A stretch of 64,000 bases of DNA, taken from contig JBITNC010000001.1 of NCBI GenBank assembly GCA_050084985.1, positions 18,042,001 to 18,106,000 of the forward strand, given 5' to 3'. Each line of letters begins with the position of its first letter. Positions within the stretch are counted from its first letter, which is position 1. The translations under genes were made by a program, and so were the position numbers. The notes below the pieces were generated by a model that saw only the letters and a program-made list of their open reading frames with translations, was not told where the DNA came from and made no database searches. This document shows, in pieces, positions 10,201 to 55,718 of this stretch. The stretch is from Nageia nagi. Its lineage: Eukaryota; Plantae; Pinophyta.

Positions 10201-12506
10201 AGTCAATTTGAAATTAGTAAGAGGATCAATCAAACTCTCTAATGCTCAAACTAGTAAATTATAATTGTTAATTATTAACAATATAAAAAACTAGTAAATT
10301 GATTTTATTTGCAACTAGTTTGGGCATTTCATATTTTGATCAATCCTTCTATTGATTTTAGATCAATTAAGAGAAACCTACAAATTCATCGAAATCCTAG
10401 TCCATAGACGATGCACATGAAGGGTTGAAGAGTGTCAAACCCTTTCAGACAAGTGATATGCATTTGAATTCTAATGCATAAGCCTCATGGAGTGAAGGGA
10501 GGGGTTATTTTTTTCATTCATTCATGAACCAAAGGACTTATAAGCAAAGGTCATTTGGGATTGCGAGTTGATTCGACATGCTTGTGGAGAGAAGCTTATT
10601 GGGCATGAAATTTATGGGACATGATGGGACTATATAATGTTTAAGATGTTATTTATTTTAAGGGTTTGATAATAAAATATTTTTCAAAAAGTACTTTCTT
10701 AGTGTTAAGCTTTTGCCCTATATTTTTAAATTTTTGGAAAAAAAAATGTATAGTCTACTATATGGACTAATAGGAGAATACTTAGTAAAGGGTTGAGAAT
10801 GAAAGCCTAAGGAATTTCAATAGGAAATATTTTGTAGTAGAAATCAAAGGTAGTAATGGAAAAGGAGATAACACAAGGGAATAAGTTCAAATGATTCTTC
10901 AAAATATGGGAAAACGGAAGGAGATAGAGGAAAAGCTAGCTAGAAGGAATGGATGGCTACCACATATTGAAATAGTCCCAACATTGGCTATATTAGAGGA
11001 ATTTATAACAAATGAAATTGCATAAAAATCTACACACACCCTTATATGCAAGTCTATTGGACTTTGATCCTCTCCCAAATTCTTGTATTCACAGGCCAAA
11101 AATCACTAGGAACCAAAAGGGGAACTTGATATTTATATAATAGGGACAAGGCCTTTGAGGGAGGACCATATAATATAGGTCCTTTATGTTTACTCATGCA
11201 ACCATGGAGATTGGATTTTGATCCTAGAATTGAACCCTCAACAACTCCAATCTAGCTTAAATTATTTGTACTTCTCTTAGAATACTAGAGGGAGGAGATT
11301 ATACAAATGATTGGTAACCTATTAAGGATGTATATTGGTAGATCAAGAGCATCATAAGAAGGATGTTCAACTACTTATGCTAGAATATGTGTTGAGATGG
11401 ACTTAAGTAAACCTCTATAAGCAGACATTGATATTAAAGCTAGAGGGAACATATAGAAGCAACATATATATTATACATAAATTCCATTTAGATGTAGAGC
11501 CTATCATGAATATGGAAATTTAGTCAAATATTTCCCCAAATTAGCTAAATGTGAGACAAATCAAATAGTTTCAAACCCAAAAACCCAATATCCACAAAAT
11601 GATAGTGATCATGGTTTCTAAAATATTATGAGAAGAGGAAGAAAAAGTGATAACTAGCCAAAGGAGAGGAACCAATAGAAGGGAGAAAACATAATCTAAT
11701 GCCAAGATTGGAGGAACCCACCTAAAAAATATGAGATCCAAATATTAGATGATCCAATGAAGGGAGATGAATTAGCAAGCTCATATCTAGCTGAAAATGT
11801 TGAAAAGCCTAAAGAAGGAGAGAATACCCCTACTCAAGCTAAATAACAATAGAACAACAAAGTGTATAAGGAATGAGGGGAATAAAGGATGGAAAATCCA
11901 CCCAAATGCAAAACCCACCAATCCATTACAAGTACATAGGATATAAATATTTGACACATTCAACCACAAATGGAACACTAATAATTGATAATTGGGAGAA
12001 AACACACCTAATGATGTCATTATGTGATTAGTAGATAAAAATAGAGAAAAAACAACCTTAAGAATCACTCAAATGGAGAAAAGATAGAAAAATTAAAAGT
12101 CTCAAGGAGCTAGTAGGAAGACAAATAAGGAGAAAATGCAATAATGAGAGCATTTATGAGAATCAAATCTAAATTTTATAACTCAAACTCCTAATTATTA
12201 TAACTACATGGAATGTAAGTGGATTATAAAACCACCCTAGATAATTAGCTGTTAAAAAATGATAGAAGATAATCATCCATAAGTGGTATTACTATGGGAA
12301 ACCAAAGGATCTATGGGAGCTATGCAAATCATTTCAAAAAGATTCTAGAGGTAAGGATATTATGAATCCAAGTTACTTAGAGTCTTTTAGGTGGATTGGC
12401 TACTTTATGGAATAGAAATACCTTTAAAGAGATTGGATCAACATATGCTAGAGGAATTTTATGATCCAACTAAGATATAGATAATCAAACATAGTTTGAT
12501 TGATAG

Positions 12507-12515
12507 TATACATAC

Positions 12516-12561
<46 letters not shown>

Positions 12562-12570
12562 TAATATATT
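12507..12570. repeat. (TACA)n/(TA)n microsatellite inside the LINE C endonuclease region
   Basis: Seen directly; not expanded at the homologous position of the left arm (~8200). Confidence 0.95.
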
Positions 12571-14488
12571 ATGAAATAGGTGCAAGAATAAAAATATCAA
12601 TGGAAGGAAATTTAGATGATAAGAGAAGCATACCTAAAAGACCTATATAGTACTAGGAGAAGTTTTTAATGCCAAGATATTAATGAATGACCAAGAGAGA
12701 GGTTTAGCTTAATTAAGTGAGAAAAATAAGCTCATGATTATCCAAGCTACTAATTTTAACCCAATTGATATTCCACCTCTAGGTTGTGGAACTACTTGAA
12801 ATAATAAAAGAAAATGATATCATACAATCAAATCAAGATTATATATAATATTGATAGAGGAAAATTCAATATCTTTGGAGATTTCATTCAAATATCCTAG
12901 AGTGGTTATATTCATACCACTTTTTTATAAGCATCCACATCATCATCAAATATCACCACCTTAAGCATCACCCCTTTAGATTTGAGAATTTTTAGCTCCT
13001 AAATAAAGATTTACTAAAGTTGATACAACAATAATGGAAAAAAGGAAAACCAAAACTTAGAATAGAATAATTCCAGCTACAATCTAGGTTAAAACATATA
13101 AAATGCATATTGAAAAACTAGATTAAATCTTGATGAATAGATTTTCAACAATAAAGAGTAGTTTTGATAGGGAAAGTGCAAGGAATAGTATGAAGGATAC
13201 AAACATAAATGATTTTAGAAGAGTTACTTTCTCAAGAAAGTGCTTTGATACAAGAGGAGGAGGAACTTGATAAGAAAAAAAGTTCTTTCATTAGTCAACC
13301 ATATTCAAATTCATTATAAACATTTGGATACTCTTATTAATACAAAATACCTCAAAGAAATTACAAAAATAACTAACAATTATTTTTTTACTTTGTTCAC
13401 TATAGACCAAATCTCTCTAAATAGGCTCAAGAGAAAGTTTCGAGAAGTATTCCCAAATTAGAATCTCTAAAGTAGAATGAAGATCTTTTAAAGGAGATCA
13501 AAGAGGAAGAGTTGAAAAGAGTCATGTTTTCCATGCAATCAAGGAAAGCCCTAGTTCCTGATGGATTACCAATTGAGTTCTACAAAGCCTTTTGGGACAC
13601 CATGGGGAATGATGTCACTAAAGCTATGGAAGAGACAAAATTCAATAGAAGGATTCTTAAATCCCTCAACTATCCCTTTTTGATCTTGATTATGGAAGTA
13701 GGAAATATGGAGAAACTAATTAATTATATACCAATTTCCCTCTACAATGTGATCTAGAAGATTATAACTAAGGTAATAGCTAATAGATTCAAAATCATAT
13801 CACCGAATATCATATCTCTTGAATAAGGTGTTTTTGTACATGATAGAAAAATTATAGATAGAAGTATGATAACTCTAAAAACTATTCAGTAGATGGCTAA
13901 AAAAAAAAAGAACAAATGAATTTTCTTGAAGTTTGATTTATCGAAGGCCTATGACATAGTGAGTTAGGATTTTTTGGATCATATTCTATAAAGATTTGGT
14001 TTTAAGGAGGAATTGATTAATTAGGTTATGGAATGCATATCTATAATCTCCTTCTAACTCTTAATCAATGGAATACATTCTCCATAATTTAAGGCTAGCA
14101 AAGGTATTAGACAAGGATATTCTCTTATCATACCTATTTATTTTTTTACAAAAGGATTGAGGGTACTTATTCAGAGAAAAAGAGTATAGAATACCATCTC
14201 AAGGGTAATGTTAAATAGAGATATAACCATAACCCATATATAATTCATGGATGATATACGATTATGAGACAAAGTAATATTAAAAGAAGCAACTAGTATC
14301 ATAGGTATTTTAGATTGTTATATTGCAACCATTGGCCAATTTCTAAATGAAGAAAAACCAAACACTATTTATTTAATATGTATAAAATAATAATGATTTG
14401 AAAATCACACCTTATGAGATTCTCAATTTCCTCCCTCACATTAGAATACCTGGGTATTCCCTTGATGAAAAAATATTGAAGAATGAGG

Positions 14489-14981
14489 TGTTGGAATCTA
14501 TAATGCATTATTGTAAAGGTTTGTATTAAATCTTCTATGTAAAGTTCACTAATATTTAAGGGTATCATTTGATACCTTAAGTGTTTAAGTGAATATGATA
14601 ATGTAACTTGTCCTACACTCCATGTTATGAGCATGCCCCTTGGGTAAAAGGATGTGCATGTCATGCTTTTGTACATTGGATAAAAGGGTTATCCAAAGAG
14701 GGATTTTGGCCTATAAATAGAGGCTCCCTATTTGTGATTATACACCAATTGTGGAGTAAAATTATGCTATAGGATAGTGGTTAGAAGAAAAGAGTAGGAG
14801 GATTGTAAGAGAGTTGTATTTGTAATTGAAGTAAAGATCTAGTTAGTGGATGTACTCCTAGTTGGAGGAACCACTTACATCTTGTGTTGTAAGATTGCTT
14901 TGTGAGTTTGTTAGATGTAATTGTGAGCTTCAATGTGATCTTGGTTGATTAAGAATTATCTTGTTAGTGTTAGTTCCTTCA
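14489..14981 (+). mobile_element. Copia solo LTR, same family as the 21891-30046 element, opposite orientation
   Basis: TGTTGGAA...TTCCTTCA ends; perfect TSD TGAGG (14484-14488 and 14982-14986); reverse complement of 21891-22375 and 29562-30046. Confidence 0.95.
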
Positions 14982-15623
14982 TGAGGATTGGAAAACTATA
15001 ATAGATAAATTTCACATAAAGCTTGCAAACTGGACTCATAAATGATTGATCTTTAGAGGTAGGATGACAATTTTGAAATCAATTCTACAAGCATTACCAA
15101 TTTACAAATTTTATAATTTAGAATCCCCTAAGAGCATCCTCAATAATTTGTATAAACTAACGAGAAGTTTTTTTATGGTGTGGAGAAAAAGGAGAGCTTA
15201 AAGGTACCTTGGTAAGATGGGATAAGGTGTATCAACCAAAGGAAATAGGAGAAATTGATATTGAAGTTGCAATAACTAAAAACCAAGCCTTATTAGGAAA
15301 ATTATACTAACTATGGATCATAAATCAAGACCAATTATGGAGTCAAGCTTTAAAAGCAAGATATTTTCTAGCCCACGAAATAGAAGGCCTCCCTTAACTG
15401 CTAGTCACAAGAGAGGGCTCAAAGATATGGAAAGTATTCAAAAATGGATCTTATTTAGTAAAGGATAATTCATATTAGAATTTAGGAGATGATAAAAAGA
15501 TCAAATTATGAGATGATTCTTAGTTACTTTCACCACCCATAATCATATAATACCCTCATATGAATGGGCTTATAGAGGCTCTATGCAATCAAGGTTGTAC
15601 CTTGATTTCTTACTATCTTATTC

Positions 15624-16711
15624 TGATCCATAAATAGTAAGATTAAAACTTCACATTAACCTCTTCAAATGGATCATTCCACACTTAAAATATTTAAGTG
15701 CTTGTAAAAGAAATTTAGGAAAACAAAGTGTAAACACAAAGAAGAGAAAAGCATTCACCAAAGAAGAGATAAGCAAGATTTATCCTGGTTCACCTAGTGT
15801 GGGCTACATCCAGCTCAAAAGCTTTCTACTATTAATGGGGGAATCACTTTACAAGGCCTCTAAGGTCCTTCAAAACCTCCTCTCACATTCACAATACACT
15901 CTTAGCTCTGAAAATCACAACAAAATTGAAACACTTTCTGAAATCCTCCTTCTTTCCTCTTTTGTCCAATTTGCTCCCCTTTTATACAATTTTTGGAGCT
16001 AAAACTAGAGAGAATTACAACTAAAAATTTCAATAGAAAAGCCTATTTTTAGATACCCATTAACCTTCTTGATCTTCCTGCCAAATTTGGGCTCAATTGG
16101 TTGCAAAAATCTCTTAAAAATGAGCTCTGAATCTGAAAAACACGCTCTCTGGACTGTTACAGGCTTACAAGATAAACTTAGCCCAAAAATAGGACCTTAG
16201 GCAAATCAAAAATCTTGAAAAACCTTTGAAAAATGCCAAAATACGTTAAAATACTCCAAAAATGGGTGGGTGCACTATGGTGCTGACACATGGCACATTC
16301 TGGGCAAAAGTTAAATGGTCAATAGGCGGGTAGGCTGACTGGGCAGCTTGCATGGGCGGTTTGGCACATGTGGACGGGTTACGCGTAGGGTCAGACGGGT
16401 TGGCGGTGCGTGTGGTCAGATGGGTCTGATAGCAGTCAAATGTGGGATTTGACCTCCACATGCTCCCTTTGGACTCTGACGTGGTCCATGGTGGCTCCCT
16501 GTCACACCGATGTGGCCTCCACAGTGGCGGGCGGGTCCTGCCATTTTTTTTTTTCAAAAATACTCAAAATAGACTTAAGGCCATAACTTTCACATACGGA
16601 CTCGGATTCTCGATCCAAAAGAAGCATTGGAAAGCTGAAGACAAGATGATTACAATGAACATACTAAAATGGAGATTACTAAATGTTGAAGGGATCCAAA
16701 TTTTCATATCA
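15624..16711 (-). repeat. Gypsy 3' LTR
   Basis: TG...CA ends; adjacent PPT (tttctcccc 16712-16720 on +); highly similar to 19920-21005. Confidence 0.95.
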
Positions 16712-16751
16712 TTTCTCCCCATTAAGAGAGAGCTTTTATCCCCAAAAGCAT

Positions 16752-19700
16752 TTAGGATGATGGAATGAGGTGAGGGTAGAGCTCCCTCACCCGATCAACT
16801 GCATACCACTTGGCCTTGTGTGGATGTTGGCCCTTCACTCTAATATGCCACACCTCATGTATGCCACTACGAGATGATCATTGCTTCTTTTCCAATACTA
16901 CATCCTTAACCAACACATTCATGTGCTCAGGGGCTAAATCCTCAACTGACTGTAACATGACCTCTGTATCTTCTGCAACTAAAGCTGGTCCATACAACTT
17001 CAAATTCTCAACATTAATAACAGAATACATTTGCATATAGGGTGGTAAGTCTAACCGAAATGCATTATCCCCAACTTGACCAATAATGGTAAATGGACCA
17101 TACCTTATTGGTTTCAACTTCCTTCCCTTACCTTGCTGTCTCTCCTTGTTGAGATGAAGCCATACCTGATCCCCAACCTAAAATTTATGATCCACTTGAT
17201 AACGATCATGCTTCTCTTTATACCTGGATACATTTTCTTGCATTTTAGGCCAATAACAATACCTTTGTAGATTAGCAAGAGTTTTCCCAACACCAAAGTG
17301 TCCTAAAATATGAGAAGTATGAGCTTCCCTAATCAAATCATTTCTCTCACCATTAGGAATACAAAGTTTGCCCAAATGAAAAAGTAATCCATCATGCAAA
17401 TGAAAGTCATGATTTCCAACCTCATTACCAAGACTCAATCTTTGATATACATTTTGGAAATCAGGATCAACCACATATTGTTCTTTATACCCATCATGCA
17501 TTAAAGAACTATTTTGCAGAATCACAACACTAGCAACTATTTCAATTTCAAAAGGTTTATGAAGATTAGGCAAAGCAAGTACTAGAGCATGACTAATTTT
17601 CTTTTTAAGCAAGTCAAAAGCATGTAATTTTTTTCCTCTCCACTAAAATCCATGACTCTTTCCTATAATAGCATGAAGTGGAGAAGGCATATAAGAAAAA
17701 TTAGCAATAAACTTGCGTAAATATTGTATTGCCCCAAGAAAACTCCTAGTCTCTGTCACATTAGTGGGAGTAGGCCATTTCAACATAGCCTCAATTTTTG
17801 CAGGATCTATCCTCAATTGACCTTCACCTACAATGTGGCCAAGATAGATTAAACTCTTCTTGATAAACTCACACTTAGACATATTCAAATAGAGTTTTGC
17901 TTCCCTTAAAACTTCAAACACTTTACGCCAAGTTCCATCTTTCTTTGGAATTATAACAATAGGAGATCCACATGGTGATGTGCTAGGTCTAATGACTCTT
18001 TGATCTAACAATTCCTTGACTTGTTTCTTAATTTTTTCATTTTCCAAAATAGTATTTCGATATAAGCCAATATTAGGAAGTGCAACATCAGGATGTAATT
18101 GAATCTCATGTTGTATATCTCTTTTAGGTGGAAGTTCTTTAGGTACTTGAAATAAATCTTCAAATTCAGAAATTACCTCGTTAACTTCTTCTTTGTATTA
18201 TGGTTCACAATCTTCAAGTGCCTTTATGATTTCCACTTCATCTTGAGATTTCACCATTGCAAGTATAAACATTTGTCCATTGATTAGTTTCTTTGCTTGT
18301 CCTGCAGTAATCAAAGAAATATCCTTTTTCTTGCTTTGATGAGCACTAACCATGTATTCAATTCCATATTTAATGAGTCTATATTTGTTTTCCTTTCTAT
18401 ATAATAAAGCATCTCTTTCCCATAGATAAGGACTACCAAGCACAACACAAATATCCAAAGGAACAACATCAAGTAAAACTTCATCAATGTAATCCCTATT
18501 AATCCCAAATTGCAACTTGCATTATTGTGTTACTTTCAACTTTGAATTGTTATTAACCCATCCCAATGGATATGGGTTTGGATGGGGTTGAGTAGTGAGT
18601 GCAAGTGATTTGACATACTTTTTTGCAATCAAATTAGCTTGAGATCCAGAATCAAATAATGTATCAATCCTAGTCTTCTTAGCTTGCACCTTGATGTGAA
18701 AAAGTTCAATTTTCTTCTTTTCCTCATCTTCATTAGGTGTATTATGCAAAGCCATACATGTCATTTTCTCATCTACATCTGAACCATCTTCAATTTCACA
18801 AGTAATAGTATTTGTTTGCTTTCTTTGACCTTTAGGTTTAGGACGTAATTCAGGATGCAATTTCCAACATTTAGCCTCTAAATGACCTTCTTTTTGACAA
18901 TGTGCACATACATCTTTAGACTTTTGTGTAGTAGACATAGTTTTCCTTTCCCCCTTTTCTTTATTCCTTTCAGAATCATCATTACTATTGTAATTGGAAG
19001 CATTGTTCTTTTTCCCATCATTAACAAATTTTCCCCTTTCTTCTAAGTGAGTGGCTTGTACACAAACTTTATCCAAATCATTTGGATCAAACATCAAAAT
19101 TGTATGCCTTAAATAATTATGCAAACCAACAATATACTTAAGAAGAGTATCTTGGGAATCAAGAGGAATACCTAGCATTGTAGCTCTTCTTCAGAATTTC
19201 ATAGTGTACTCTTGCACACTTTGTCCTTTGCCTTGACGGAAAGTTTGCCATTCCATGATTGTCTTTTGCCGATAACCCAAAGGATAAAATTGATTTCTAA
19301 GCAATTGTACAAAATGAGACCAAGAAGCAATACAAGCTTGAATAGATTCATTCTTGCTTTGTAAACAACTTTCCCACCAAACAAGTGCATTACCACTCAT
19401 TTTAAGAGTTGCTAATTGGATTTTATCCTCATCTCTTACAATTCTTTGAACTCTACAATATACTTCAATTTGTTTAATCCAATGGTCTAATTTCTTAGCA
19501 TTTACTTCTCCAATAAAAGTAGGCAAATCAAATTTAACTTCCAATTTCAAAGGAGAACTATGAAAAACACTATGTGTAACATCATTGTTAATTTTATTAC
19601 TTTCACTAGTTTCACCTTCATTTTTCTTGTATTGTTGTTCTTGAAAATGTTGGAATTGTAGAGACATTTTCTGGAACATTGTGGCAAGATCAGCAATTTG

Positions 19701-19874
19701 CTTCTCCACATTAGACCCTCCTTCATTGGCCATGGCTCCAAGCTCTCTTTGCTTCTTTAGCCAAACTCTAGAACCAATTTCTGGATCCTCTTCCATAAAT
19801 TCTCCTTCTCCTTTCTTGCTTTGTGACCTAGTATACATGCAAGAACACTTTCCAAACACCAACAACAATCTCAA
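16752..19874 (-). pseudogene. Gypsy gag-pol pseudogene in a single frame with nonsense codons; RT, RNase H and integrase cores deleted
   Basis: ORFs 19191..19874 (gag), 18522..19178 (CAHCQKEGHLEAKC knuckle, LFDSGSQ protease), 18198..18515, 17643..18047, 17178..17612 and 16878..17117 (YGPF, GPY/F region) all share one frame. Confidence 0.95.
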
Positions 19875-19903
19875 AAATAGAGGTTATCCCAATGATTCAA
19901 CTT

Positions 19904-19915
19904 GCTCTGATACCA
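19904..19915 (-). promoter_or_regulatory. Primer binding site (tRNA-iMet)
   Basis: TGGTATCAGAGC on the minus strand, 4 nt from the 5' LTR. Confidence 0.95.
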
Positions 19916-19919
19916 AACT

Positions 19920-21005
19920 TGATCCATAAATAGTAAGATTAAAACTTCACATTAACCTCTTCAAATGGATCATTTCACACTTAAAATATTTAAGTGCTTG
20001 TAAAAGAAAATTAGGAAAACAAATTGTAAACACAGAGAAGAGAAAAGCATTCACCAAAGAAGAGATAAGCAAGATTTATCCTGGTTCACCCAGTGTGGGC
20101 TACATCCAACTCAAAAGCTTTCTACTATCAATGGGGGAATCACTTTACAAGGCCTCCAAGGTCCTTCAAAACCTCCTCTCACATTCACAATACACTCTCA
20201 GCTCTGAAAATCACAACAAAATTGAAACACTTCCCGAAATCCTCCTTCTTTCCTCTTTTGTCCAATTTGCTCCCCTTTTATACAATTTTTGGAGCTAAAA
20301 TTAGAGAGAATTACAACTAAAAATTTCAATAGAAAAGCCTATTTTTAGATACCCATTAACCTCCTTGATCTTCCTGCCAAATTTGGGCTCAATTGGTTGC
20401 AAAAATATCTTAAAAATGAGCTCTGAATCTGAAAAACATGCTCTTTGGACTGTTACAGGCTTACAAGATAAACTTAGCCCAAAAATAGGACCTTAGGCAA
20501 ATCAAAAATCTTGAAAAACCTTTGAAAAATGCTAAAATACATTAAAATACTTCAAAAATGGGTGGGTGCACTGTGGTGCTGACATGTGGCACATTCTGGG
20601 TAGAAGTCAAACGGTCAATAGGCAGGTAGGCTGACTGGGCAGCTTGTGTGGGCAGTCTGGCACACATGGACAGGTTGCGTGTGGGGTAGATGGGTTAGTG
20701 TTACGCATGATCAGATAGGTTTGACAACGGTCAGATGTGGGATTTGACCTCCACATGCTCCCTTTGGACTCTGATGTTGTCCACGGTGGCTCCCTATCAC
20801 ATCGACGTGGCCTCCATAGTGGCGGGCGGGTCCCGCCATTTTTTTTTTCAAAAATACTCAAAATAGACTTAAGGCCATAACTTTCACATACGGACTCAGA
20901 TTCTCAATCCGAAAGAAGCATTGGAAAGCTAAAGACAAGATGATTACAATGAACACACTAAAATAGAGATTACTAAATGTTGAAGGGATCTAAATTTTTG
21001 AATCA
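19920..21005 (-). repeat. Gypsy 5' LTR
   Basis: Direct repeat of 15624-16711, adjacent to the PBS. Confidence 0.95.
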
Positions 21006-21890
21006 TATTCATCCTAGCTAACAACATCCTTCATATAGGTATTACACTATGGATCACTAGTTAAATGGAGAATGGGAGGTAGAAAAAGAATAACTAATAA
21101 AATTTTAGAAAAGAGAACATGGTTATGGAAGGATGGTCCTAATCAATAACATTGAGGACAAAATATATAAAGAACATATATAGTAAAATAAGGTTATTTA
21201 AGATCCCTCCTAATTAATCACTCCTAACCATAACTTCTTTGGAAAGAAATATCGCAACCAAAAGGATGTAAAAAAATAAAATATTTGTCATGCATGATGG
21301 TTCACAATAACATTATGACTTAAGACAATATGCAAAGAAGAGAATTCATTGGACCAAGCATATGTGTTATGTGTAATTAGGAGTAAGAATCCATAGACCA
21401 TCTTCTTTTTTAGTATACCTATGATATAACAATTTAGAGATGGTGGCACCTAATATTCAACTAAATATAATATTTTCCTCCCAACAATAACAATTTATGT
21501 GATTATTTCTCACAACAATTTAAATTTTGAAACTTTGAGAATATCTTGGAAGCTTGGAATGGGATTTATTTGGTGGCAGTTATGGCTGTAATAAAATAGA
21601 AAAAAAATTAAGGAGAAATTTGGAACAATGGAGAGAACATGAAGAATTATAATGAGGAAATTACTTGAGATAATACGAGGTAAAGTATAGGTAGAGTATC
21701 AAATCGTAGTGGAAGAATAAGTTATTTGGGCACAAATCTAGAAGCAATTGCAGAATGAAGGTCAAAGGGTATAAAAAAGAGAGATAGAGAGAAATTGCAA
21801 ACTTACATGGGAGCATTCCCCAATAGAGAAAAAGAAGACACAAGTTAAGTTGTATGGCATACATATATCCTAAGAAGACATAAGCAAAAA

Positions 21891-22375
21891 TGAAGGAACT
21901 AACACTAACAATATAATTCTTAAACAACCAAGATTACATGAAGGCTCACAAAACACATCTAACAAACTCACAAAGATAACACAAGATGTAAGTGGTTCCT
22001 CCAACTAGGAGTACATCCACTAACTAGATCTCACTTCATAACAAATATGAACTCTTACAATCCTCCTACACTTTTCTTCTAAATATTATCCTATAGCATA
22101 ACTTTACTTCACAAATTGGTGTGTGATCACAAAGAGGGAGCCTTCTATTTATAGTCCAAAATCCCTCTTTGGATCACCCTTTTATCCAATGTACAAAAGC
22201 ATGACATGCACATCCTTTTACCCAAGGGACATGCTCATGGCATGGAGTGTAGGACAAGTTACATTATCATATTCACTTTAATACTTAAGGTATCAAATGA
22301 TACCCTTAAGTATTAGTGAACTTACATAGAAGATTATTATAAAATCTTTACAATAATGCAGTATACATACCAATA
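21891..22375 (-). repeat. Copia 3' LTR
   Basis: Direct repeat of 29562-30046; followed on + by ctccccctt (PPT complement). Confidence 0.95.
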
Positions 22376-23089
22376 CTCCCCCTTAATGCAATATTGGGAT
22401 AGATCGAATAAGAGAGAAAGTAAGAGAGTTCTCCTCCAAATAGATACAACGAAGATGAGAACTTTTTACATATTTGTGAAGTAAGAAAGATCTAGTTTGG
22501 GACTCACTACTTTGTCAAATACAATCATTAACCATAATCTATTTCAATGTACATGAAGTAGTCATCCAATTAGAGGTCATGAAATGTCTCTAAGAGCCTG
22601 CATACCTAAAGTAAGTAACCTACAATCTCAAAGGAACCTGCAAGTCATAAGCAGCTCAAATAATAAAATCAATTCAATGTAACATATTCATATCAACAAG
22701 GATATATGAATCACTTAAATGCCATCATGAACTGATCAATGGTGCACTATAAGTCATCACAAAGATGCCAAGCCAAAACTCATAGTCACCTATTGTATAT
22801 AAAACATGTGTTGATTATCATTACAAAATAGAGCATGCACATATAAGTTCCTCACATATGGATAATTGAACAGTGCCAAAAGACACATAAGAGTTCCTCA
22901 CACATGGATAACTAAACAGTGCTAGATTGGCCAATCTTTTTTCTTTAAAAACTTTTTACAAGTTCCTCACATAGAGCAAACTTACCATGAAGGTGTACAA
23001 TAAAATCAATACTATACAGTAGAAAATCCTCCTAAGGGTGAAGTTGTCATCACAAACATGAATTTAACACAAAAGTTCAAACTTCACTC

Positions 23090-26000
23090 CCCCTTGAGGG
23101 CAATTTCACCAACCCGATAGCATCCCTAAGCTTATAGAATTGAGCTTTTGAGAGGGGCTTGGTGAACAAATCAGTGGAGTTCAAGGTGGATGATGCCATC
23201 AAAAAAATTTTCCTTGATAAAATGGGCATGGATTTCCACATATTTTGTTCTCTAATGGAATATAAGATTCTTAAACAAAGAAATAGTTGACTGATTATCT
23301 AAAAAAATCAAAGATGAGCCACCTTGCTCATACCTAATTTCTTTTAGAAGATGCCTTATCCAACTAGCTTCCGAAGCTACAACAGACATAGAATGGTATT
23401 TAGCTTGTATGGTGGAAAGAGAAATAGTAAGTTGCTTCTTAGAAGCCTAAGAGATAGCACCTAAACCAATGTTAAACACATATGCAGAGGTTGATTTCCT
23501 ATCATCTTTATCTCCCCCACGGTTAGAATCTAAGAATCCAAAGAGAAAAAATGAGGGCAAATTAGAATACTTGAGAACAAGATGGTTTTTGCATGAATCA
23601 TGCCATCAAATTCATTACAAAGGTAATATCTAGCCTAGAAATAGTCAAATACAAAAGACTACCAATTAATCACCTGTAAGCTATAGCATCAGCTAACTGA
23701 GAGTTGGAGTTCAGAGAAATAGTGATTCTAGGAGAGATTGGGATCACAACATATCTACACTCTTCCATTCCAAACATCTGCAAGATGTTTGATATATACT
23801 TAGATTGACTAAGATAAGTGTAATCCTTGTATTGGTATACTTGCATTCCAAGGTAGTAGTGCAAGAGACCAAGATCAATCATTTCAAATGTTGCCTTAAG
23901 TTTGGATATGCACTCTTGAATGATTTCATCATTGTTCTTAGTTATCAGAAGATCATCCACATAAAGGAGAATCAAGACCACCTCTTTTCTTTGATTGAGT
24001 ACATATAGGTCAAAGTTAGAAAAACACTTGAAGAAAATAAAGTCTACAAAATACCTTGAAATCTTTCTATACCAAACTCTAGGTGCTTGCTTAAGTCCAT
24101 AAATGACTTCTTTAGCTTGCACACAAAGGACTCTTTACCTTTCACAATAAACCTTTCTGATTGATTCATAAGGATTTCCACATCTAAGTCACTATTGAGA
24201 AATGCACTCTTGACATTAAATTGAAAAAATTTCCATCATTGAGTTGCAGAAAGAGCAAAGATCATTCTCATAGTATGCATCTTTGGTACAAGAGCAAAGG
24301 TTTTCTCACAATCTACATTGTATTTCCAAGCAAAACCTTCGGTTACTAAACTTGCCTTGTATTTCTCAATATCCCTAATTGAATTAAACTTGACCTTGTA
24401 GATCCACTTATTGCCAATCACATTCTTCTTATTGGGATAAGAAATCAAATCTCAAGTTTCATTTTTCATAAGTATCTCATACTCTACTTTCATGGCTTCC
24501 ATCTAGCACTCATACTCAAAAGCTTCTTTGAAAGTTGAGAGCTCATGCTTATTGTCAATCTTGGAAAATAAGGATTTTTTTAAGGTCATGCTCCTTGTTA
24601 CCCTTTATGTTGGAGAATTTTGTTCTTGAGGTGACTTGTCTACATCAAAATCTAACTAGCTAGGTGCAATTGAAGTGTCCTCTAGATCATCAACATCCTC
24701 ATTAGGAGAAAATTCTTTAGGAAGTTCATTAAATTTTACATCCTTTTAAACAAACACAGCTTTGTAGGATGGAGAGTAGAGCCTGTATCCTTTATGCTGA
24801 TTGTCATAACCCACAAAGATGCATTTTTTAGCTCTTTTTTTCAACTTTTTTCTTTTTTCAAAAATAATGTAGGAGAATGCTTCACAACCAAACACCCTAT
24901 GGTGAAAAATGTTAGGTTTTCTTCCTAACCATACCTTAAGAGGAGTTTTACCCTGAACAAATTTTATGGGACACCTATTCAAGGTGTAAATACTAGTGCT
25001 CATAGCTTCATCCAATAAGAAACTAGGAAGATTACCCAACATGCATTTAGCCATTTCCATAATTATTCTATTTTTCCTTTTGGTAACACCATTTTGATGA
25101 GGAGTGTAAAGAATCATAAATTTCCTCTTGATTTCATACTTAGCAAAATGGTTATTGAACTCATTACTGTTATATTCTCCCCCATTATCTGATCTCAACA
25201 TCTTAATTTTAAAGTTAGTTTGATTCTCAACAAAGGCCTTAAAAACTTTAAAACTCTCAAAGGTTTGATCCTTGTGCTCAAGTAGATATCCAAAGGTCAT
25301 CCTACTAAGGTCATCGATAAAGATCAAGATGTAAGATGCTCCTCCAAGTGAATTAGTATTAAATAGAACCATTAAATCTAAATTCTCAAGTTGAAGAGGT
25401 TGAGATGCTCTTGCTACCTTATATTTTTCAAACTTTTGTCTATGCATCTTGCCAAGAATGCACTTCTCACATAGACCAATTGATGGAGAAATTGAAGGCA
25501 AACCTTCCATAATTTCTTTATCTTTCATGACTTGAATACTCTTGTGGTTAAGGTACCTTAAATGTTGGTGCCAAAGATTTTCTCTAGAACACACACTTGT
25601 AGTAAGACACATCTTTGATGGAACTTGATCCACAATGTAGAGATCATCTTTTATTGCCCCTTTAACCAACGTGGTAAGTCCTTTTTTAATGCACCAAGAT
25701 TGAGAATCAAACTCAAAAGAGTACCCTTTTTTAGCAACTTGGATCATGGAGAGGAGGTTCATCTTAAGCTTATAAACATAGAGAATGTTGTCAAGAACCT
25801 TTCCATGAATCAACACACTCCCAATTCCTTGGATTTCAAGGGTAGAGTTATCACCTATCACAACCACATCTTTTCTATACTTGTGAAAGTTCTTAAATTT
25901 TTCCTTTTAAAAACATAGGTGATTAATGCAATGAGAATCAATAATCCAATTAGACAAAAAATTATGAGACATGGAGTAGAGAATCATAGCAAAACTAGCT

Positions 26001-26979
26001 TGAATATCTTTTTTTCCTTTGAAGTTCTTTACATTTCCATTGCCTTTGTTCTTTTCCTCTCTTTTCTTTTTGTAGCAATCAAATTCTTTAGGACCTTGGA
26101 TGCCACAATAGTAACAATTACCATCAAACTTTTCTTTAAGATATGGATTGTTTGCTTTGCCTTTTCCATCTCTTTATTTGAAGTGGTTGTTGTTACCATT
26201 GTTCCTATTGTTATTATTGTTGTTCTTGTTGTTGCTATTGTTGCCATTGTTCCTGCTACAGTTGTAGCCATTACCTCTTTTTTCAAATATTTTTGAGGAA
26301 GAATGATAATATTTCTTTTAATGGTTGAACTTCTTCTTGAAAGAAGTTTTGGTTGCTCCAATAGCAACATTATTATCCTTAGGAGAAGAAATCAACACCT
26401 TTTTATTAAGAGTTTTCTCATGCTTCAAAAGAGCATGGAAAGGTTCTCAAGGGAGAAGACTTCTTCTTCATTATCAAAGCTTATTTCCATAACTATCACA
26501 AAGTTTTCAAATTTTGATGAAAGGCTTTAAAAAATGATTAATACCATGAAATCATCATTGATCCAATTCCATCCACAAGCAATAAGTTGGGTCCTAAGTT
26601 CAATGATTTTGTTCAAGTAGATAGCCATATTTTCATCTTCCCCTTGACAAGATTGAAGCAACTTTTGGAGAATAGTAAACCTTCTTAAAAACTTTGAATC
26701 AAGGTAGATTTACTTAAGCTTATTCCAAGCTTCCTTTATCGAGGTTGAAGATGAAATCATTAGGAGCACATCATCAAAAATTGCACAAAAAATTATGGAT
26801 GTTGCCAACTCATTCTTTGTGTTGTAAGCCTCTAGTGCCTTCTCATTTGTAGGAGGTACTAGGTTCTCATTCACTATTTGCCAAATCTTTTTTACTTGTA
26901 ATTCAGCTCTCATCTGAGGTTCCCAAATACCAAAGTTGGAACCATCAAGAATGTGTTTGGGTAAAAAGGATTCTCCCAT
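23090..26979 (-). pseudogene. Copia gag-pol pseudogene
   Basis: 26710..26979 gag start (LDGSNFGIW); 24746..25867 GAG-pre-integrase and integrase (RSDNGGEY, TPHQNG); 24236..24448 and 23670..24122 RT (YGLKQAPRVW, LYVDDLL); RNase H remnant to ~23090. Confidence 0.93.
26185..26265 (-). repeat. AAC/AAT low-complexity (Asn-rich-coding) tract within Copia gag
   Basis: Degenerate gtt/att trinucleotide run just upstream of the zinc-knuckle region. Confidence 0.7.
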
Positions 26980-29561
26980 TTGCTATATAAAAATGTAAAA
27001 AATAATAAGCATGTGGTTTAAAAAACAACATTAGATGTTAAGTTTTAACCAAATATATAATACATGTTAAATTTAACACTAGATTCATGCTTGATTTGAT
27101 TCACAAGTGCAAATGTTTTACAACACAAATAATAATCCATGTACCCAAATACTTTTTTCATCACAAAAATTGTAGATGTAGAGTGACATTGTTGAGGCTT
27201 GATTTCTTGTCTAAAATTAGGCCTTCATCTAGATGCCCACACAAGAGGAGCCCAAGTACTACCAATCCCCAACTAGTTCACCTTGGTCAGTATTATACTT
27301 TCTCACAAGGAGAAGTACTAGCTATTTTCTAAGGTTATGACATTTATTAGATCGAACAAATTATTAATCTTGATTAGGTTTCAAGTTGTCCTCCTAGGTT
27401 ATCAAGATAATCCTTGAATAGATGTGTGAACATGTGGTATCACTACACACATGCCTGTCCACCTATTGGAGTTATGTCCAGACCAATATAGGACTTAGGG
27501 GTAATTGAGAAGTACAAAATTTTCACCATTTGGATCATCGAACTTAAAGGCTCTAGTTTGCCTATCCTCACCTCATGGATCCCTAAACAAGTCATGTTGC
27601 AAAATGTACGTGTGGATGTGTTTATTTTAAGGGATTGCTCATTTCAATGTTTGCGATTTTGCATAAGTAAATAGAGCAAAAGTGCTAAGCATGAAGAAAA
27701 GTGCATAAAATTTAAACATCATCCATTCATAACTTGGAACCTTAAGAGTCCAATGGGTTTTGTTTACTAACCGCTAAAGGACATCTTTACATAGGTCTAT
27801 AATTTGCACAAGTTAACTTTGCAAAAAATGATAAATACTTAAGCATAAGCATGCATTAATTTTAAAATTTGCACAAGTTAACTTTTTATAAAGGATAAAT
27901 ACTCAACATGCATCTTTTTAACTTAAGGAATTTAATTCATTAGCAAGCATATTTAAAAAAAAATTAAGTCCTAAGCATGCATTCAATAAAATTAAAGTAA
28001 AAATTTATACAAATTCCCCCCTTTTTACTTAAGGTTTTATCCCTAAAACTTGTATGCTAAAAAAATTAGTAGACATAGATAAATTTTAAGTAAGAATAAA
28101 ATTCCCCCTTCTTCAACTTAAATATTTATCCTTTAAAGATAGCATACTTAGATTACCTTAGCAAATTTTTGACTAAATTTTTTTTTGTCTAAGCAAATTA
28201 CCATACTTAGAAGTTTTTAATAAAAAATTATACTCCCAAACAACCTCCATGTGACACATTTTCTAAAAAAATGGGATAGCATTTAAGAGTAATGATGCAT
28301 ATTTTACTCTAAAGTAATGTAATTATGATAATGCTTTAAGTTTAGAGTAGAAGTGTATAAAGGAGATGGCTTGCAAGAAAAGAAAAAATAAATGCCTACC
28401 AAAGAAGTATATGATTGCTTCTAGAATGCTTGCAAGCAACAAGGGTCATTAAATGTTAGACCCCCCACCCTTATTTGGTAAAACAAAATGCTAAAAGACC
28501 AAGGAAAAAAAAAATTCAACAGGGTCCATGAGCATTGAGGAGGAGGATGCAAAAGGGGTTGTAGTTGGTGAGGAGGAGGATGCGAGGCAGTGAGGAGGAG
28601 AGCACCAACAAGGGCCACAGGTAACAAGCCTTTGGTTAGGGAAGGGGGCCATGAGTTGAATCAGATTAAATGATTAGAGGGGCCATGTGAGGAGGAGGAC
28701 TTTGATCCATGCAAGGAAATTTTTTTTGATAGACATGCATCCACGCTCACCACACCATCGACATGCGATGAGGATAGGGTAAGAAAAAAGAAGTAGGTGT
28801 TGACCAAAAGGATGGTCGAGTGATGGAGTTCACAGTGGATCTAAAAGAAGATGGGACACACAAAATAAGGATAGGAGGAGGAGTCCAACCAGATCATCTC
28901 TCCTCAGGATGGGAGGAGATTTGTATGATTTTTTTTATTTTACAAATTTTTGTATATAAAAAAAAACTTTCTTATATATATCTGATTTGTAATAAAAAAA
29001 ATACAACTCCTCTTTTTGTTTGAAAAAGAAATTTATATAGTAAATATCCTCTAATGTTTTGTATCAACATTTTTGTAAAAAGGTGTAAAACTATATATAG
29101 AAATATAATTTTTTTAAATATTTTTCTTCACAAAGATAGTGAAGAGATAAAAAAATACAATATCTTTTCTTAAAATATTATTTATTAAAACAAATGTGTA
29201 TATATATATATATATTCAAAACCTTTGATAAAAAAAATCTCTAAACCAAATATATGCAAAATTAGAGCAATGTAACTATCAATTTTAAAATAATAGGAAA
29301 TATTAGTATAAGTAAACAAAATTGCTTCTCAATATATTGCTCTTTAACAAATTTGCCACATATATAAGAGAGAACTAACATAATACCAAATATGTTAGTA
29401 ACATTAGTTAAATATGTAAAAAAGGAAGGAGATTGTAAGTAGGAGGTTATACCTTATCTTGAATTTTACCTCAACAATGAAATGAAGAGATGAACACCAA
29501 GAAGAAGAGCTTCCACACCAAGGATGTGAAGAGGAGCCTTCAAGAAGCTCTGATACCAATT

Positions 29562-30046
29562 TGAAGGAACTAACACTAACAATATAATTCCTAAACAACC
29601 AAGATCACATGAAAGCTCACAATACACATCTAACAAACTCACAAATATAACACAAGATGTAAGTGGTTCCTCCAACTAGGAGTACATCCACTAACTAGTT
29701 CTCACTTCTTAACAAATATGAACTCTTACAATCCTTCTACACTTTTCTCTTAAAAACTATACTATAGCATAACTTTACTCCACAAATTGGTGTGTGATCA
29801 CAAAGAGGGGGCCTTCTATTTATAGACCAAAATCCCTCTTTGGATCAACCTTTTATCCAATGTACAAAAGCATGATATGTAGATACTTTTACCCAAGGGG
29901 CATGCTCATGACATGGAGTGTAGGACAAGTTACATTATCATATTCACTTAAATACTTAAAGTATAAAATGATACCCTTAAGTATTAGTGAATTTATATAG
30001 AAGATTATTATAAAACCTTTACAATAATTTGTTATACATTCCAACA
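29562..30046 (-). repeat. Copia 5' LTR
   Basis: Adjacent to PBS gctctgatacca (29547-29558 on +). Confidence 0.95.
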
Positions 30047-43325: not shown

Positions 43326-46320
43326 TGTTTTAATTACATAATGCATTGAGAGTGGGGATGAATCAGTGTATTATAATTTAAAAACTCAACTGGTCAACTA
43401 ATAAAACTAAATTCATGTAAGATAAGAAATGAAATAAACCAAAGTATAGTAAGCACATCAAGAGAGCATCACACAATGTAAGATGTAACGAGGTTCACCA
43501 ATATGACTACATCCTCAAATTGGATTGCTTGGATCATGGTCCAAATTGAACCATTACAAAGCACCAAATTTACAATCATTTATCGACACCAAATAGAAGG
43601 ACAATCAATCCATTTGCTTTACCATCATCCATTGGAAGGAGCACCAACCGCTATTTTACTAGCACCAACTAGAAGAGGCACCAACCCTTAAGTTTTGTAG
43701 TACCAACTACAAGGAGCATCAACCCCTAAGCTAAGCACCATGTTGCACTTCAAACCTCAGTCATTAGTTTGATATATAAATATGCCTTTATTATTTAAAA
43801 ATCTTTATCTGATTTATAGCTCATTCAACTTCACTCTTGGCTACCTTTGTTTGAATCTTGCACTCAATCTTCATAGCCAATCCATTACCATCTTTATCAT
43901 TCTATCAATGTATAATCTTCACTAAAATCTCACTCTAACACATTCTTTGTTCTATTTTTCCTCTTCAACATTCACATGCATGAACACTACACCTTGTTTA
44001 TTTTTCATTCAAACATACTCATTGCATCTCCTTCACTCTACTACACCTCGATTAATAATAGCAACTACAAGAGCTTTAAAATTTTCTTATACTTTTATTG
44101 ATCTGCTATCTCTTACAAATACATGCTACTCTCATCCGTATACACCACACACATATCTTCATCAATTACTCATTCATGTAACTATATTTTCAATCATAGA
44201 TACTATATCATTCTCCTCTATGCCTTCTCATCTTTTCATTTTTGCTCTCCTTCTACATGCATTGCATTATGTAACTCTCCTTTCTTTAACTTACTCCCTA
44301 TTCTTCTTTAGCTGCTCAACAAGTCATTCACACCATACTATTACCATCAAAGTATTTTCAACTTATTTACAATGAAATCCACCCTGCTAGTCTATTACTC
44401 TTACTTCATCTTCCTTTTTCTCTTTACTACCTTCTTAACAGAACCAACAAATAATCTCACAATCACATTTTAACATTTTTACTTGGATATTCCAAAATAA
44501 TTCTTGCTGATCATGCTTAATTGTGATTGTCCTCAACCATATTTTCTAGTTACTTTCTTAAAATAATCACCACTCCCTAGTTATTTTTATAAGGTTTTAA
44601 TTAATTGCTTTTAATATTTCTTTCATAAACCACTCTTGATCAATAATTTTATTCATGGTGATCATTCAATTACAACCTCTTCACTTTCAGTTACAAAAGT
44701 AATAAATATAAGAAAATCCCATACATTGAAGCTACTTTAAATTTTGATACAAGTGTCCAAATGCAATAAATTTTGATACAAAAATAATAAACATAAGAAA
44801 GTCCCATACATTGAAGCTGCTATAAATTTTGATACAAGTTTCCACCATTGAATAGATTATTTTTGATAGATATGCATCGAGTGGTCATACGATCCCTTTT
44901 TCCTCAAATATGAACATTTGATAGTTATTTTCATAATTATTGCAAAAAATGAGTCATAAATGCCCAAAACAAATTATGGGATAATCACACTTAATTTATC
45001 CTCTATGTGCATAATCAAACTTATTTTATCCTTTATGTTTTTTACACCCAACAAACTTTGTTAATGGTCAACAAACTTCGTTGATGCCCGATAAGGTATG
45101 CATAAACGCCCAAACCATATTGGATAATCACACTTAGTTTATCATATACATTTTTAACATCATAAGTGCTTTATTTTGAACCCTAAAATTTTTTTATGAG
45201 ACCTAACTAACATTTTTATGCTCGATTATAAGCATTTTTGACATATTTTAATAGACTACTTTATTTAGTAGTTAATTTTTCAACAAAGGTAGTCATGCAT
45301 ATACTCGTTGGAAAGATTATTTCAATAAATATCTAATAAATAAGAAATAAAATTAATTTGAATCATGTAATAAGAGTTATAGCTCTCCAAATATTACTAA
45401 TATTTTTTCTATGATAAATTCTTACCATCATAGCTCCACTTTGCATTGTCAGACTCTTCCTTCCATTGTCAGAATTTACCTTTTATTCTCAGAATTCATT
45501 GGCTATTATCGACCTTCACCTTACATTGTTGGATATCACTTTACATTATCAACCTTAACCCTACATTTTCAAACATCACTTTGCATTATTAGGCTTCATA
45601 TTTTCTCTACCATTTTACCTTCTTTGCTATGGTGTGTTGACAATAACTCTGCTATAGTGTGTTGACAACAATGATAAACTCTTGCTTAACAATTTGACCA
45701 TATCATCATTTTTGAACAACACCTAGAAAATACATGGTATTACTTGATACTACATGTATTCAATTTTTGGTAATTCTTAACAGCATATTAACAGTTAACA
45801 ACATTAAAGCTTTCATGCCTAGTAACATTCAACACAATTGTATTAGCATAAAACATTCATCCTTTACACTGTGTTATGAATTTTTCTTTTAATATTCTCA
45901 CAAACCTATAATATGAATTCCTTAAACTTAACATTAACATGATGTGAATATTATCCTTTTTGTAAGATCATGTCCCCCAAAAATAACACCCTGCATGACC
46001 TAACAGTGTATATTTTCACTATTAGCACTCCATGACTTCTTGACTTATTCTTCATGTTATTTTCCAAATATTATATAGCTGAAATTTTTATAACTAGCAT
46101 GTGCATAATCATATTTGCATTTGATATTATTCCATTTAATAACCTTTGCCATAACCATGTTCTCATTTGACAGACCTTCATAGGAACCTACACTCTTCAA
46201 CTTTATGATAGAAACACTTAATCTGATAGTATGAATTCATAGTTACCTTTGACATTATATCAAGATTTTCTCTATGACAACAATATCCTTTAACAACAAT
46301 GACAACACCATAGTTCAACA
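43326..46320 (-). mobile_element. ~3-kb solo-like LTR (family X, SIRE-like Copia)
   Basis: Colinear with 52762-55718; TG...CA ends; host gag sequence on both sides; TSD only approximate. Confidence 0.85.
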
Positions 46321-48250: not shown

Positions 48251-48254
48251 CACT

Positions 48255-52761: not shown

Positions 52762-55718
52762 TGTTAGTCACATAATGAAAATGATAGGGGGATGAATTGA
52801 TGTATTATAATTTAAAAACTTAATTGCATAATTCATAAAACTTAAATAATGAGAGATAAGAATTGAAATCAACCAAAGTAAAGTAAGCACATAAAGAGAG
52901 CATCACATAATACAAGATGTAATGAGGTTTACCAATATGGCTATACACTTGGATAAGATTGCTTAGATCATGTACAAATATAACCATTGAAAAGTACTAA
53001 GTTTATAATCATTTACCAACACCAAATGAAAGGAGCATCAATCCCTTTACTTTATCAGCACCCACTGGAAGGAGCATCATCCTCTACTTTACCAACACCA
53101 GCTAGAAGGAGCACCAACCCCTAAGTTTTGCAACACTAAATGCATAGAGCATCAACACCTAAGCCAAGCACCAACTTGGATTTCAAAGCTTAACCACTAG
53201 TTTGAAATATAAATATGCCTTTGCTATTCCTAGATCATTATCTAATCTACAACTCATTAAACTTCACTCTTGACTACCTCTATTTGAATATTGCACACAA
53301 TATCAATATCCAATCCATTGCTATCTTTTTCATTCTATCATTGTATAATCTTCATTAGCATCTCAATCTAACACATTCTCTATTCTATTTTTTCACTTTA
53401 ACAGTCACACTCATGGAGACTACAACTTGTTCAATTGTCATTCAAACATACTCATTGCATCTCCTTCACTCTATTACACTTCGATTCATAATAGCAACTA
53501 CAATAGCTTTAGATTTTCTTATACTTTTATTACTTTGCTATCTCTTACAAATACCTTCTACTCTCATTCATATACACCATACACATATATTCATTAGTTA
53601 ATCATTCATGTAATTGTATTTTCAATCACAAATACTGTATCATTCTCCTCTATGCCTTCTTATCTTTTTACTACTACTCTCTTTCTATATGCATTACATT
53701 CTGCAACCCTCCTTTTTTTGACTTACTCTCCATTCTTCTTCAGCTAATAAATAAGTCATTCACACCATATTACTACTATTAAAGTATTTTTAACTTATTT
53801 ACAATGGCATACTCCCTACTGGCCTGTTACTCTCACTTCATCTTCCTTATGCTCTCTACTACCTTCTTAACAAAACCAACAACTAATCTCATAATCACAT
53901 TTCAACATTTTTACTTAGCTAGTTGAAAATAATTCTTGATGATCATTATGCTAAGTTGCAACTATCCCCAACCATATTTTTCAATTACTTTCTTGAAATA
54001 ATCACCACTCCATAGTTATTTTTGTTAGGTTACACATAATTTCTTTTTCTATTTTATCCATAAACCATTCTTGATCAATAATTTTGTTCATGGTGGTCAT
54101 TTAGTTACAAACTCTTCACTTTAAATCACAAAAATAATAAACACAATCAATTCCCATACATTTAAGCATCTATAACTTTTGATAAAGGTGTACAAATGCA
54201 ATAAAACTCCACCATTGGATAGATTATGTCTGGTAGATGCAAATCAAGTGGTCATATATCCCTTTTGCCTAAAAAATAAACATTTGGCAGTCATTTTTGT
54301 AACTACTGCAGAAAATAAAAGTCATAAACACCCAAAACAAATTATAGGATAATTGCACTTCATTTATCCTCTATTTGGATAATCAAACTTAGTTTATCCT
54401 TAACATTTTTAACACCCAACAAACTTTGTTGATGGTTGACAAACTTCATTGATGCCCGACAAGGTGTGTATAAATGCCCAAAACATGTTGGATAATCAAA
54501 CTTAGTTTATCATATAATTTTTTACCTTGTAAGTGCTTTATTTTGATCCCCAAAAAATGTTTATGATTCTTGAATAACCTTTTTTAGCCCCAACAAACAT
54601 TTTTTATGCCCAATAAGCATTTTTGACATATTTTAGTACACTACTTTGTTTGCTAGGAAATTTTACGATAAAGGTGGGCATGCATATACTTGTTGGAAAG
54701 CTTATTTCGATAAATATAAAATAAATAAAAAACAAATTAATTTGAAATACATACTGAGATTTATATCTCTCCAAATATGATTGATCCCTTTTCTATGATA
54801 AATTCTTACCATCACAACTCCACTTTGCATTGTAAGACTCTTCCTTCCATTGTCAAACTTTACCTTTTATTATCAGAATTTAGTTGCTATTATTGGCCTT
54901 CACCTTACATTATTTGATATCACTTTATATTATTAGCCCTCACTCTGCATTGTCAAACATAACTTTTCATTTTCAAGCTTCATATTTTCTCTACAATTTT
55001 ACCTTCTTTGCTATGGTGTGTTGACAATAACTCTACTATAATGTGTTGACAATAATGATATAAAACTCTTGATCAATACATATAACCATGTCATAAATTA
55101 TTATTAATACCTAAAAAATACTCAATACTACTCAACACTACATGTATTCAATATTCGGTAACTCTTGGTAGCATATTAATAGTTAACAACATTAAAGCTT
55201 TCATTCCTAGTAACATTCAATACACCTATATTAGCATACAAAATTCATCCTTTACATAGTGTTATAAATTTTCCTATTAACATTCTCACAAACATATGGT
55301 GTGGATGCCTTAAACTTAGCATTAGCATGATGTGAACATTATCCTTCCTATGAGGTCATATTCCCTGATAGTAAGAAAAATAACAGTCTGTATGACTTGA
55401 TACTATATGTTTTCACTATCGATACTCCATGACTTTATGGGTTGTTCTTCATGTTATTTATCCAACATTGTATAGCTACAATTCTAACAAATTGCATGTG
55501 CACAATAATATGTGCATTTAATATTATTCCATCCTGATAACCTTTGGCATAACTATGTTGTCATCCTACAAACCTCTATAGACACCTACACTCTTCAACT
55601 TTATGATAGCAACACTTAATTTGATAGTATAACTTCATAGGTACCTTTGAAATTGTAGCTGAATTGTCTTTATGAAAATAATTTTCTTAAACAACAATGA
55701 AAAAACCACGTGTCAATA
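52762..55718 (-). repeat. Family-X 5' LTR (~3 kb)
   Basis: Adjacent to PBS; colinear with 43326-46320. Confidence 0.88.

Follow-up and report, generated by a model that had tools for sequence, protein, structure and literature searches.

A covarying stem-loop with a predicted loop-E-like core in Copia and Gypsy LTRs, and a lead to poly(A)-site choice

Retrotransposons with long terminal repeats (LTRs) account for the greater part of many plant genomes; for the most part, neither their R/U5 boundaries nor their poly(A) signals have been mapped. A stretch of 64,000 nucleotides from Nageia nagi (contig JBITNC010000001.1, positions 18,042,001 to 18,106,000; hereafter the window) raises the question of why Copia and Gypsy LTRs that are otherwise unlike each other should carry one and the same short motif, and what that motif may do in their transcripts. 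An earlier note, drawn from the sequence alone, had described it as a structured RNA element. Our data lead us to regard it as a real, selected RNA structure and, with high confidence, as a conserved, covarying structure of the sense strand common to Copia and Gypsy LTRs. Its architecture is that of a 5-bp stem, an AYGUA/GAA internal loop, a hairpin of 4-7 bp, a UA(A/C)AU tail and a U-rich tract. As a stem-loop of the R region with a loop-E-like core, it offers a concrete clue to how poly(A) sites are chosen.

Elements carrying and lacking the motif

The pattern GGATGTA-N8-20-GAACC was matched six times in the window, against 0.06 matches expected in shuffled window sequence, and none of 100 shuffles reached six. 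All six copies lie on the sense strand of their LTRs, are followed on their 3' side by UA(C/A)AUCUU and have an outer stem of about 5 bp; the sequences and coordinates first given for them proved right on re-checking. They belong to three independent families, one of type Copia (A), one of type Gypsy (B) and one unclassified (X).

Family A was assigned to Copia because its integrase precedes RT_2. It comprises a solo LTR (14489..14981, plus strand) flanked by a TGAGG target duplication, and an element on the minus strand (21891..30046) with integrase, RT_2, broken frames and an AAAAA target duplication. In the solo LTR, the motif (14845..14875, plus strand; 41 bits in the motif model) displays the outer stem, the AUGUA/GAA loop and a 4-bp hairpin, after which come a UACAUC tail and a U/G-rich tract; a putative TATA-like box (14712..14719, plus strand) stands 136 nt upstream. 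The copy in the 3' LTR of the full element (21991..22021, minus strand) was found by both pattern and motif model, and that in the 5' LTR (29662..29692, minus strand) lies 103 nt upstream of the LTR end and of an iMet-type primer site. Between copies of this family, the 50 nt around the motif are identical at 49-50 of 50 positions versus 88-93% overall, a level that one other 50-nt window likewise approaches (48-50 of 50).

Family B is represented by a shortened Gypsy element (15624..21005, minus strand; TATTC target duplication) encoding gag, protease, partial RT, RNase H and the integrase zinc domain, and its domain order (gag-PR-RT-RNaseH-IN) is that of Gypsy. The motif of its 5' LTR (20081..20109, minus strand; 50 bits) is located 175 nt downstream of a TATA-like box and 163 nt upstream of the LTR end, and that of the 3' LTR (15785..15813, minus strand) has CUGG and one inner C.A mismatch. 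Families A and B thus both display the LTR pair, target duplication, primer site and domain order of LTR retrotransposons, with 5-bp target duplications at all three insertions (the solo LTR and both elements), and the motif occupies similar positions in them, 135-175 nt 3' of the TATA-like box and 103-163 nt 5' of the LTR end.

The third family (43330-57545) consists of a pair of 4.9-kb repeats that are 82-87% alike and includes a 740-nt block present three times; it could represent either a duplication or a non-autonomous element of large size. The motif (43490..43516, minus strand; matched by pattern and motif model) is found near the 3' end of the first repeat (43330-48204). The second repeat (52764-57545) holds a decayed version at about 52905..52960 (minus strand), below detection by the motif model, and an iMet-type primer site follows. 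A primer site is therefore present, but no recognisable coding region or protein domain was found in this family, whose class is not assignable.

Scanning the window with the motif model revealed no new intact copy. Two further Copia elements (33412-38493 and 57540-62410) have LTR pairs, near 33412/38026 and 57540/62210, in which neither the motif model nor BLAST detected a copy, so that the motif is patchy within one genome. The second of these elements starts at about 57540, where the likeness to family X stops. It is also worth recording that an inverted duplication, old and very long, occupies positions 3058-21507. Its centre is near 10285, its arms are 75-83% alike, and the right one is interrupted by both the Gypsy element and the solo Copia LTR.

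Covariation, strand and internal loop

A wider set was obtained by scanning metagenome contigs with TGGAYGTA-N9-17-GAACCA-N1-4-TAAAT, a pattern that places no constraint on the inner stem and on two outer pairs but fixes the loop letters and the TAAAT tail, whose constancy outside the window is therefore partly imposed. At least 128 loci were recovered, and long flanks were taken for 80. All four inner positions were paired in 92 of 130 matches, among the matches listed. With a related pattern, this was the case for only one of 70 matches in viral contigs. Scans of viral contigs yielded chance matches only (70, 7 and 0 loci) and no Copia relative, plasmids gave a single weak match of 33 nt, and two scans of prokaryote genomes returned 0 and 10 matches, one of the ten with four inner pairs and probably located in host DNA. 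A fully paired motif was present in non-coding DNA of 31% GC (L211, 1993-2049) in a contig titled as a phytoplasma assembly; it is likely to be host-plant DNA.

Both superfamilies recur among the motif-bearing metagenome loci. Comparison with the window proteins matched only seven loci, and Pfam was used instead on sense-strand frames, 79 of 108 being scanned. Copia-type gag was found in eight loci (L082, L107, L113, L116, L119, L152, L153 and L156) and Gypsy-type gag in L128, where the primer site is of a different kind. In the latter locus, a GC-rich LTR (205-360) carries the motif about 95 nt from its end, followed by a non-iMet primer site and the gag frame, which makes it a second Gypsy lineage with the motif; we take this lineage to be Tat/Retand-like. 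Another locus (L109) holds one motif-bearing LTR in three copies within 1.6 kb (1073-1126, 1559-1612 and 2644-2697), which suggests a very small or tandem element.

The pairing was evaluated on 131 metagenome and six window hits, clustered by flanking sequence into 26, 37 or 41 groups, six unpaired and chance-like rows being kept. At 37 clusters, the inner positions were paired in 33, 33, 33 and 28 of 37, against 25.6, 16.8, 20.2 and 17.4 after shuffling (p 0.0004 or less), these p values being shuffle-based rather than R-scape values, for clusters that are related and not phylogenetically independent. The first free outer pair was formed in 28 of 37 clusters (shuffled 14.7, p 0.0002) and the second in 23 of 37 (shuffled 16.7, p 0.024), the latter without significance at 26 groups (14/26, p 0.27). 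A third free outer pair that was considered is unsupported and pairs in 3 of 36. A 42-row alignment, which leans towards structure since the six chance-like rows and a truncated one were dropped and 12 members of large clusters added, had 91.9% of its cells paired, two-sided changes in seven of nine pairs and a covariation score of 0.587, versus 0.182 when shuffled and at most 0.115 in slid registers. RNAalifold, unprompted, returned the same two helices. The stability of single sequences was unremarkable (z from -1.09 to +1.13), the motif fold being the minimum-energy structure in three of eight and the centroid in five of eight; this fits a module held by non-canonical pairs or by a protein, without being evidence for one.

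These pairs could in principle be maintained in DNA, as a transcription-factor site or as a cruciform beside the TATA-like TATAAAT that follows many copies, or they could be a neutral relic of common ancestry. TATA-like motifs have indeed been proposed to serve at the same time as poly(A) signals in plant Copia LTRs, in the accessible text of PMC3601003. However, free stem positions change in pairs, and G-U oppositions, which double-stranded DNA does not favour, outnumber A-C oppositions by 37 to 8 in 31 cluster representatives (binomial p 1.5e-5). Decay of a DNA palindrome would be expected to give both equally, so this excess points to RNA. A separate TATA-like box exists 100-250 nt upstream, with 17 sense versus two antisense matches over 103 hits. 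Against the relic stands flanking LTR sequence that cannot be aligned, as had been claimed: the best cross-family BLAST match among five window LTRs was the island around the motif in A and X (E 0.018), all others having E 0.06 or worse. Both versions of this explanation appear very improbable. In 22 of 129 distinct hits (nine of 37 clusters), the same strand carries an iMet-type primer site 61-255 nt further downstream, and the mirrored arrangement was seen in none, among the matches listed. Taken together, pairing, G-U excess and same-strand primer sites indicate a sense-strand RNA structure. The earlier note had proposed, from the window copies, stems that vary yet still pair, across Copia and Gypsy and on one strand, and this now finds support in a much larger set, through covariation and primer-site orientation.

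The internal loop opposes AYGUA to GAA, in a register set by covariation. Its supposed invariance was confirmed within the window; outside, it is imposed by the search patterns and supported indirectly by decayed copies. In the 80 loci, the motif model found nine further copies of at least 26 bits that the pattern had missed, and their core changes, where present, are G>A or C>T, which fits decay after insertion. Score by itself is no proof of structure, as unpaired pattern matches reach 34.5 bits in this model.

The note had also assigned the loop to the sarcin-ricin/loop E module, which, in the available passages of PMC6633198, is defined by a sheared A.G top pair, a U.A handle with an extra G and an A.A pair below. 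The upper block is compatible with this label: sequence and register provide the A.G pair and the handle (GUA opposite GA), although these letters are pattern-fixed outside the window. The label would, however, require a one-base insertion. An A.A pair directly below the triple calls for AGUA, whereas all 42 rows read A-Y-G-U-A, set by the pattern in general but unprompted in the window copies. The motif does have an A on each strand for such a pair, with one pyrimidine inserted between A and G, and insertions at this very step are noted for SRD-like junctions in the same passages. Further non-canonical pairs below, as in sarcin-ricin/loop E structures including PSTVd loop E, are absent from it. 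The loop is thus predicted to be SRD-like and not a canonical sarcin-ricin member. Two other identities were rejected. In a k-turn, the bulge is followed by GA, whereas GU is found here; and the bases after GUA covary as a stem, which does not fit a splice donor.

The poly(A) reading and its rivals

As the earlier note had suggested, strand and position within the LTR are biased: all six window copies are in sense orientation, and in Copia and Gypsy LTRs alike the motif stands in the 3' half, between the TATA box and the LTR end. The functions put forward at that time were packaging, export, 3'-end formation and host-protein binding, and 3'-end formation is the one best supported, through data on tobacco Tto1. 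We consider it about an even chance that the motif promotes cleavage and polyadenylation some 20-25 nt downstream and so marks the end of R. The sequence after the tail has 50% U and 16% A, versus 37% U and 28% A upstream. In plant poly(A) regions, an A-rich hexamer precedes a U-rich cleavage region by 10-30 nt. A U-rich, A-poor tract is present here; the A-rich element is less clear, the tail being pattern-fixed in the wider set and reading UACAU in families A and X of the window, which resembles an A-rich signal poorly.

In Tto1, the 3' LTR was deleted stepwise, and end point A was placed where the longest mRNA had been mapped to have its major termination site (PMC3061985, here and below for the portions available). 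Taken as its reverse complement, the element-specific part of the deletion-A primer corresponds to the 23 nt after GAACC in six of 205 loci (three with one mismatch), from which cleavage would occur about 23 nt after GAACC. We infer that a hairpin of the present type may lie just upstream of the primer site. Termination was retained in construct A, and constructs B-D, from which the region was gone, read through to the added terminator. If Tto1 has the hairpin, the motif would be at the 3' end of R, within the sequence on which the downstream poly(A) site depends. It must be kept in mind that deletion B removes 114 nt, more than the motif, and that a second major, early poly(A) site is reported near the start of the repeated region (PMC3061985). 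Contigs from sequencing runs of presumed RNA or of unspecified type, compared with the window, had no loose poly(A) end among the rows listed; this carries no weight, since transcript ends are not visible in contigs, and a depth peak over the motif and the TATA region in these runs reflects shared words.

The same experiments bear on a role in first-strand transfer or another step of reverse transcription in R. The motif is in the repeated region, and for Tto1 hairpins have been suggested as starting points of strand transfer; nevertheless, constructs B and C, without the region at the 3' end, still gave full-length cDNA, for which 100 nt further upstream were needed (PMC3061985). If Tto1 has the hairpin, these constructs imply that the motif is dispensable at the 3' end for strand transfer, and a position at the primer match would largely refute this role, which is hardly credible at present.

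A 5'-leader signal for packaging, dimer linkage or nuclear export, read by Gag or a host export factor, is the main rival, though a doubtful one; closeness to the poly(A) site would then merely reflect the end of R. Being in R, the motif is in the 5' leader of every genomic RNA, the Tto1 deletions spared the 5' copy and so do not bear on this signal, according to the accessible part of that study, and loop-E-type modules are protein-recognition points (PMC6633198, available passages). On the other hand, Copia and Gypsy Gag are different Pfam families, for which one Gag-specific signal is unlikely, and the distance to the primer site is variable (61-255 nt). Dimer linkage fits poorly with hairpin loops that vary in length and sequence, and a dimer initiation hairpin of retroviral type was rejected, since such a hairpin has a self-complementary loop whereas a 4-nt palindrome occurs in two of 31 loops and a 6-nt one in none.

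An unlikely alternative is a regulatory switch or stability element. It would act like the HIV-1 polyA hairpin in keeping the poly(A) site of the 5' LTR silent, favour elongation in the manner of TAR, or shield the 3' end of the RNA; GAUGUA could pair with the UA(C/A)AUC tail in an alternative fold, by which the signal would be masked. The loop strand GAUGUA and the tail UACAUC are exact complements in families A and X (14848-14883 and 43480-43514), which provides a second fold that excludes the first. This perfect 6-bp match, the minimum-energy fold in X, speaks for a switch, as do the stem-loops found at the poly(A) signal in retroviral R regions (PMC2664473, in the text available). By contrast, 12 of 31 representatives combine a loop C with a UAAAU tail, which breaks the alternative pairing, an argument weakened by the pattern-fixed tail; and a U-rich internal loop of ENE type is lacking.

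To return to polyadenylation, a mechanism can be outlined in which the 5x3 internal loop would offer proteins a platform to bind, and the outer stem would expose the UA(A/C)AU tail, which precedes the U-rich cleavage tract, as a near-upstream poly(A) signal. The whole unit would be read by a host 3'-end factor, and a long R region would thereby be secured in elements without AAUAAA. The spread across two superfamilies might then result from exchange of LTR modules or from convergence on one host factor. This mechanism has its limits, as the motif is also part of the 5' leader and could have been conserved for other functions there, and two Copia families of the window lack it. More tentatively, and with somewhat more doubt than confidence, we propose a structured RNA family, so far undescribed and of very high copy number, across plant Copia and Gypsy elements, a loop-E-like aptamer that would recruit one host 3'-end (or export) factor and set the R/U5 boundary. 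Such a portable LTR module would be the missing structural poly(A) signal and would shape the ends of host transcripts entering solo LTRs. No conserved polyadenylation signal was found in plant Copia LTRs, according to the accessible text of PMC3601003.

Whichever function prevails, a covarying module common to both superfamilies is a marker by which solo LTRs can be oriented and the end of the RNA predicted. As a short target, it makes testable how a single sequence is passed over in the 5' LTR yet used in the 3' one. It further suggests a host factor required by many elements, and has a bearing on the question of whether superfamilies exchange parts of their LTRs.

Comparison with known systems

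The motif is apparently uncatalogued. Rfam 15, which the earlier note had named as a check, contains no match to it: the window gave no hit at the gathering threshold, and seven weak hits between 14480 and 16750 (E 1.4-9.9) did not include any over the motif. Similar sequence occurs in many plant LTRs, and specialists may know the motif informally. Full-text literature searches retrieved no description of it, although figures, supplements and subscription papers, such as a 2005 paper on the Tto1 leader structure, may bear on the matter. It is unnamed in the available portions of PMC3601003, PMC2829016, PMC4918200, PMC11656987, PMC3735527 and PMC2664473, and those of PMC12218528 make no mention of transposons. 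Supplementary alignments of PMC3601003 contain scattered matches in gapped alignments, and the motif is absent from the six passages displayed. The motifs catalogued in plant LTRs, in the accessible text of PMC3601003, PMC2829016 and PMC11656987, are the TATA box, terminal inverted repeats, Sirevirus repeated motifs and the integrase signal. These are likewise short conserved islands in divergent LTRs, but none of those listed there corresponds to this motif or to its RNA fold.

Hammerhead ribozymes have a CUGANGA/GAAA core, three stems and a cleavage triplet, and the ...A / GAA flanks of the motif loosely recall their stem II junction. A hammerhead was nonetheless rejected, as the alignment supports two coaxial helices and no third stem, and no Rfam match was obtained. 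Like the hammerheads of retrozymes, the motif is a small structured RNA inside plant LTRs; unlike them, as far as the available part of PMC4918200 describes, it lacks a cleavage triplet as well as conserved stems I and III, its strands close as one stem, and it resides in coding elements of both superfamilies.

The termination region of the Tto1 3' LTR is linked to the motif by a match between the motif's tail and the 23 nt that lead up to the poly(A) site mapped there. The hairpin discussed for strand transfer in the accessible text of PMC3061985 is a different one, further upstream, and that text describes no conserved loop at the termination site. Finally, the stem-loops of retroviral R regions (the HIV-1 polyA hairpin and TAR, the R hairpins of MLV and HML; PMC2664473, portions available) share with the motif a hairpin in R that adjoins an A-rich signal and a U/GU-rich tract and is present at both RNA ends. 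In contrast to those retroviral hairpins as presented there, the motif has no AAUAAA, its A-rich tail is placed 3' of the stem and not in the loop, and its fixed internal loop is common to two superfamilies instead of being lineage-specific.
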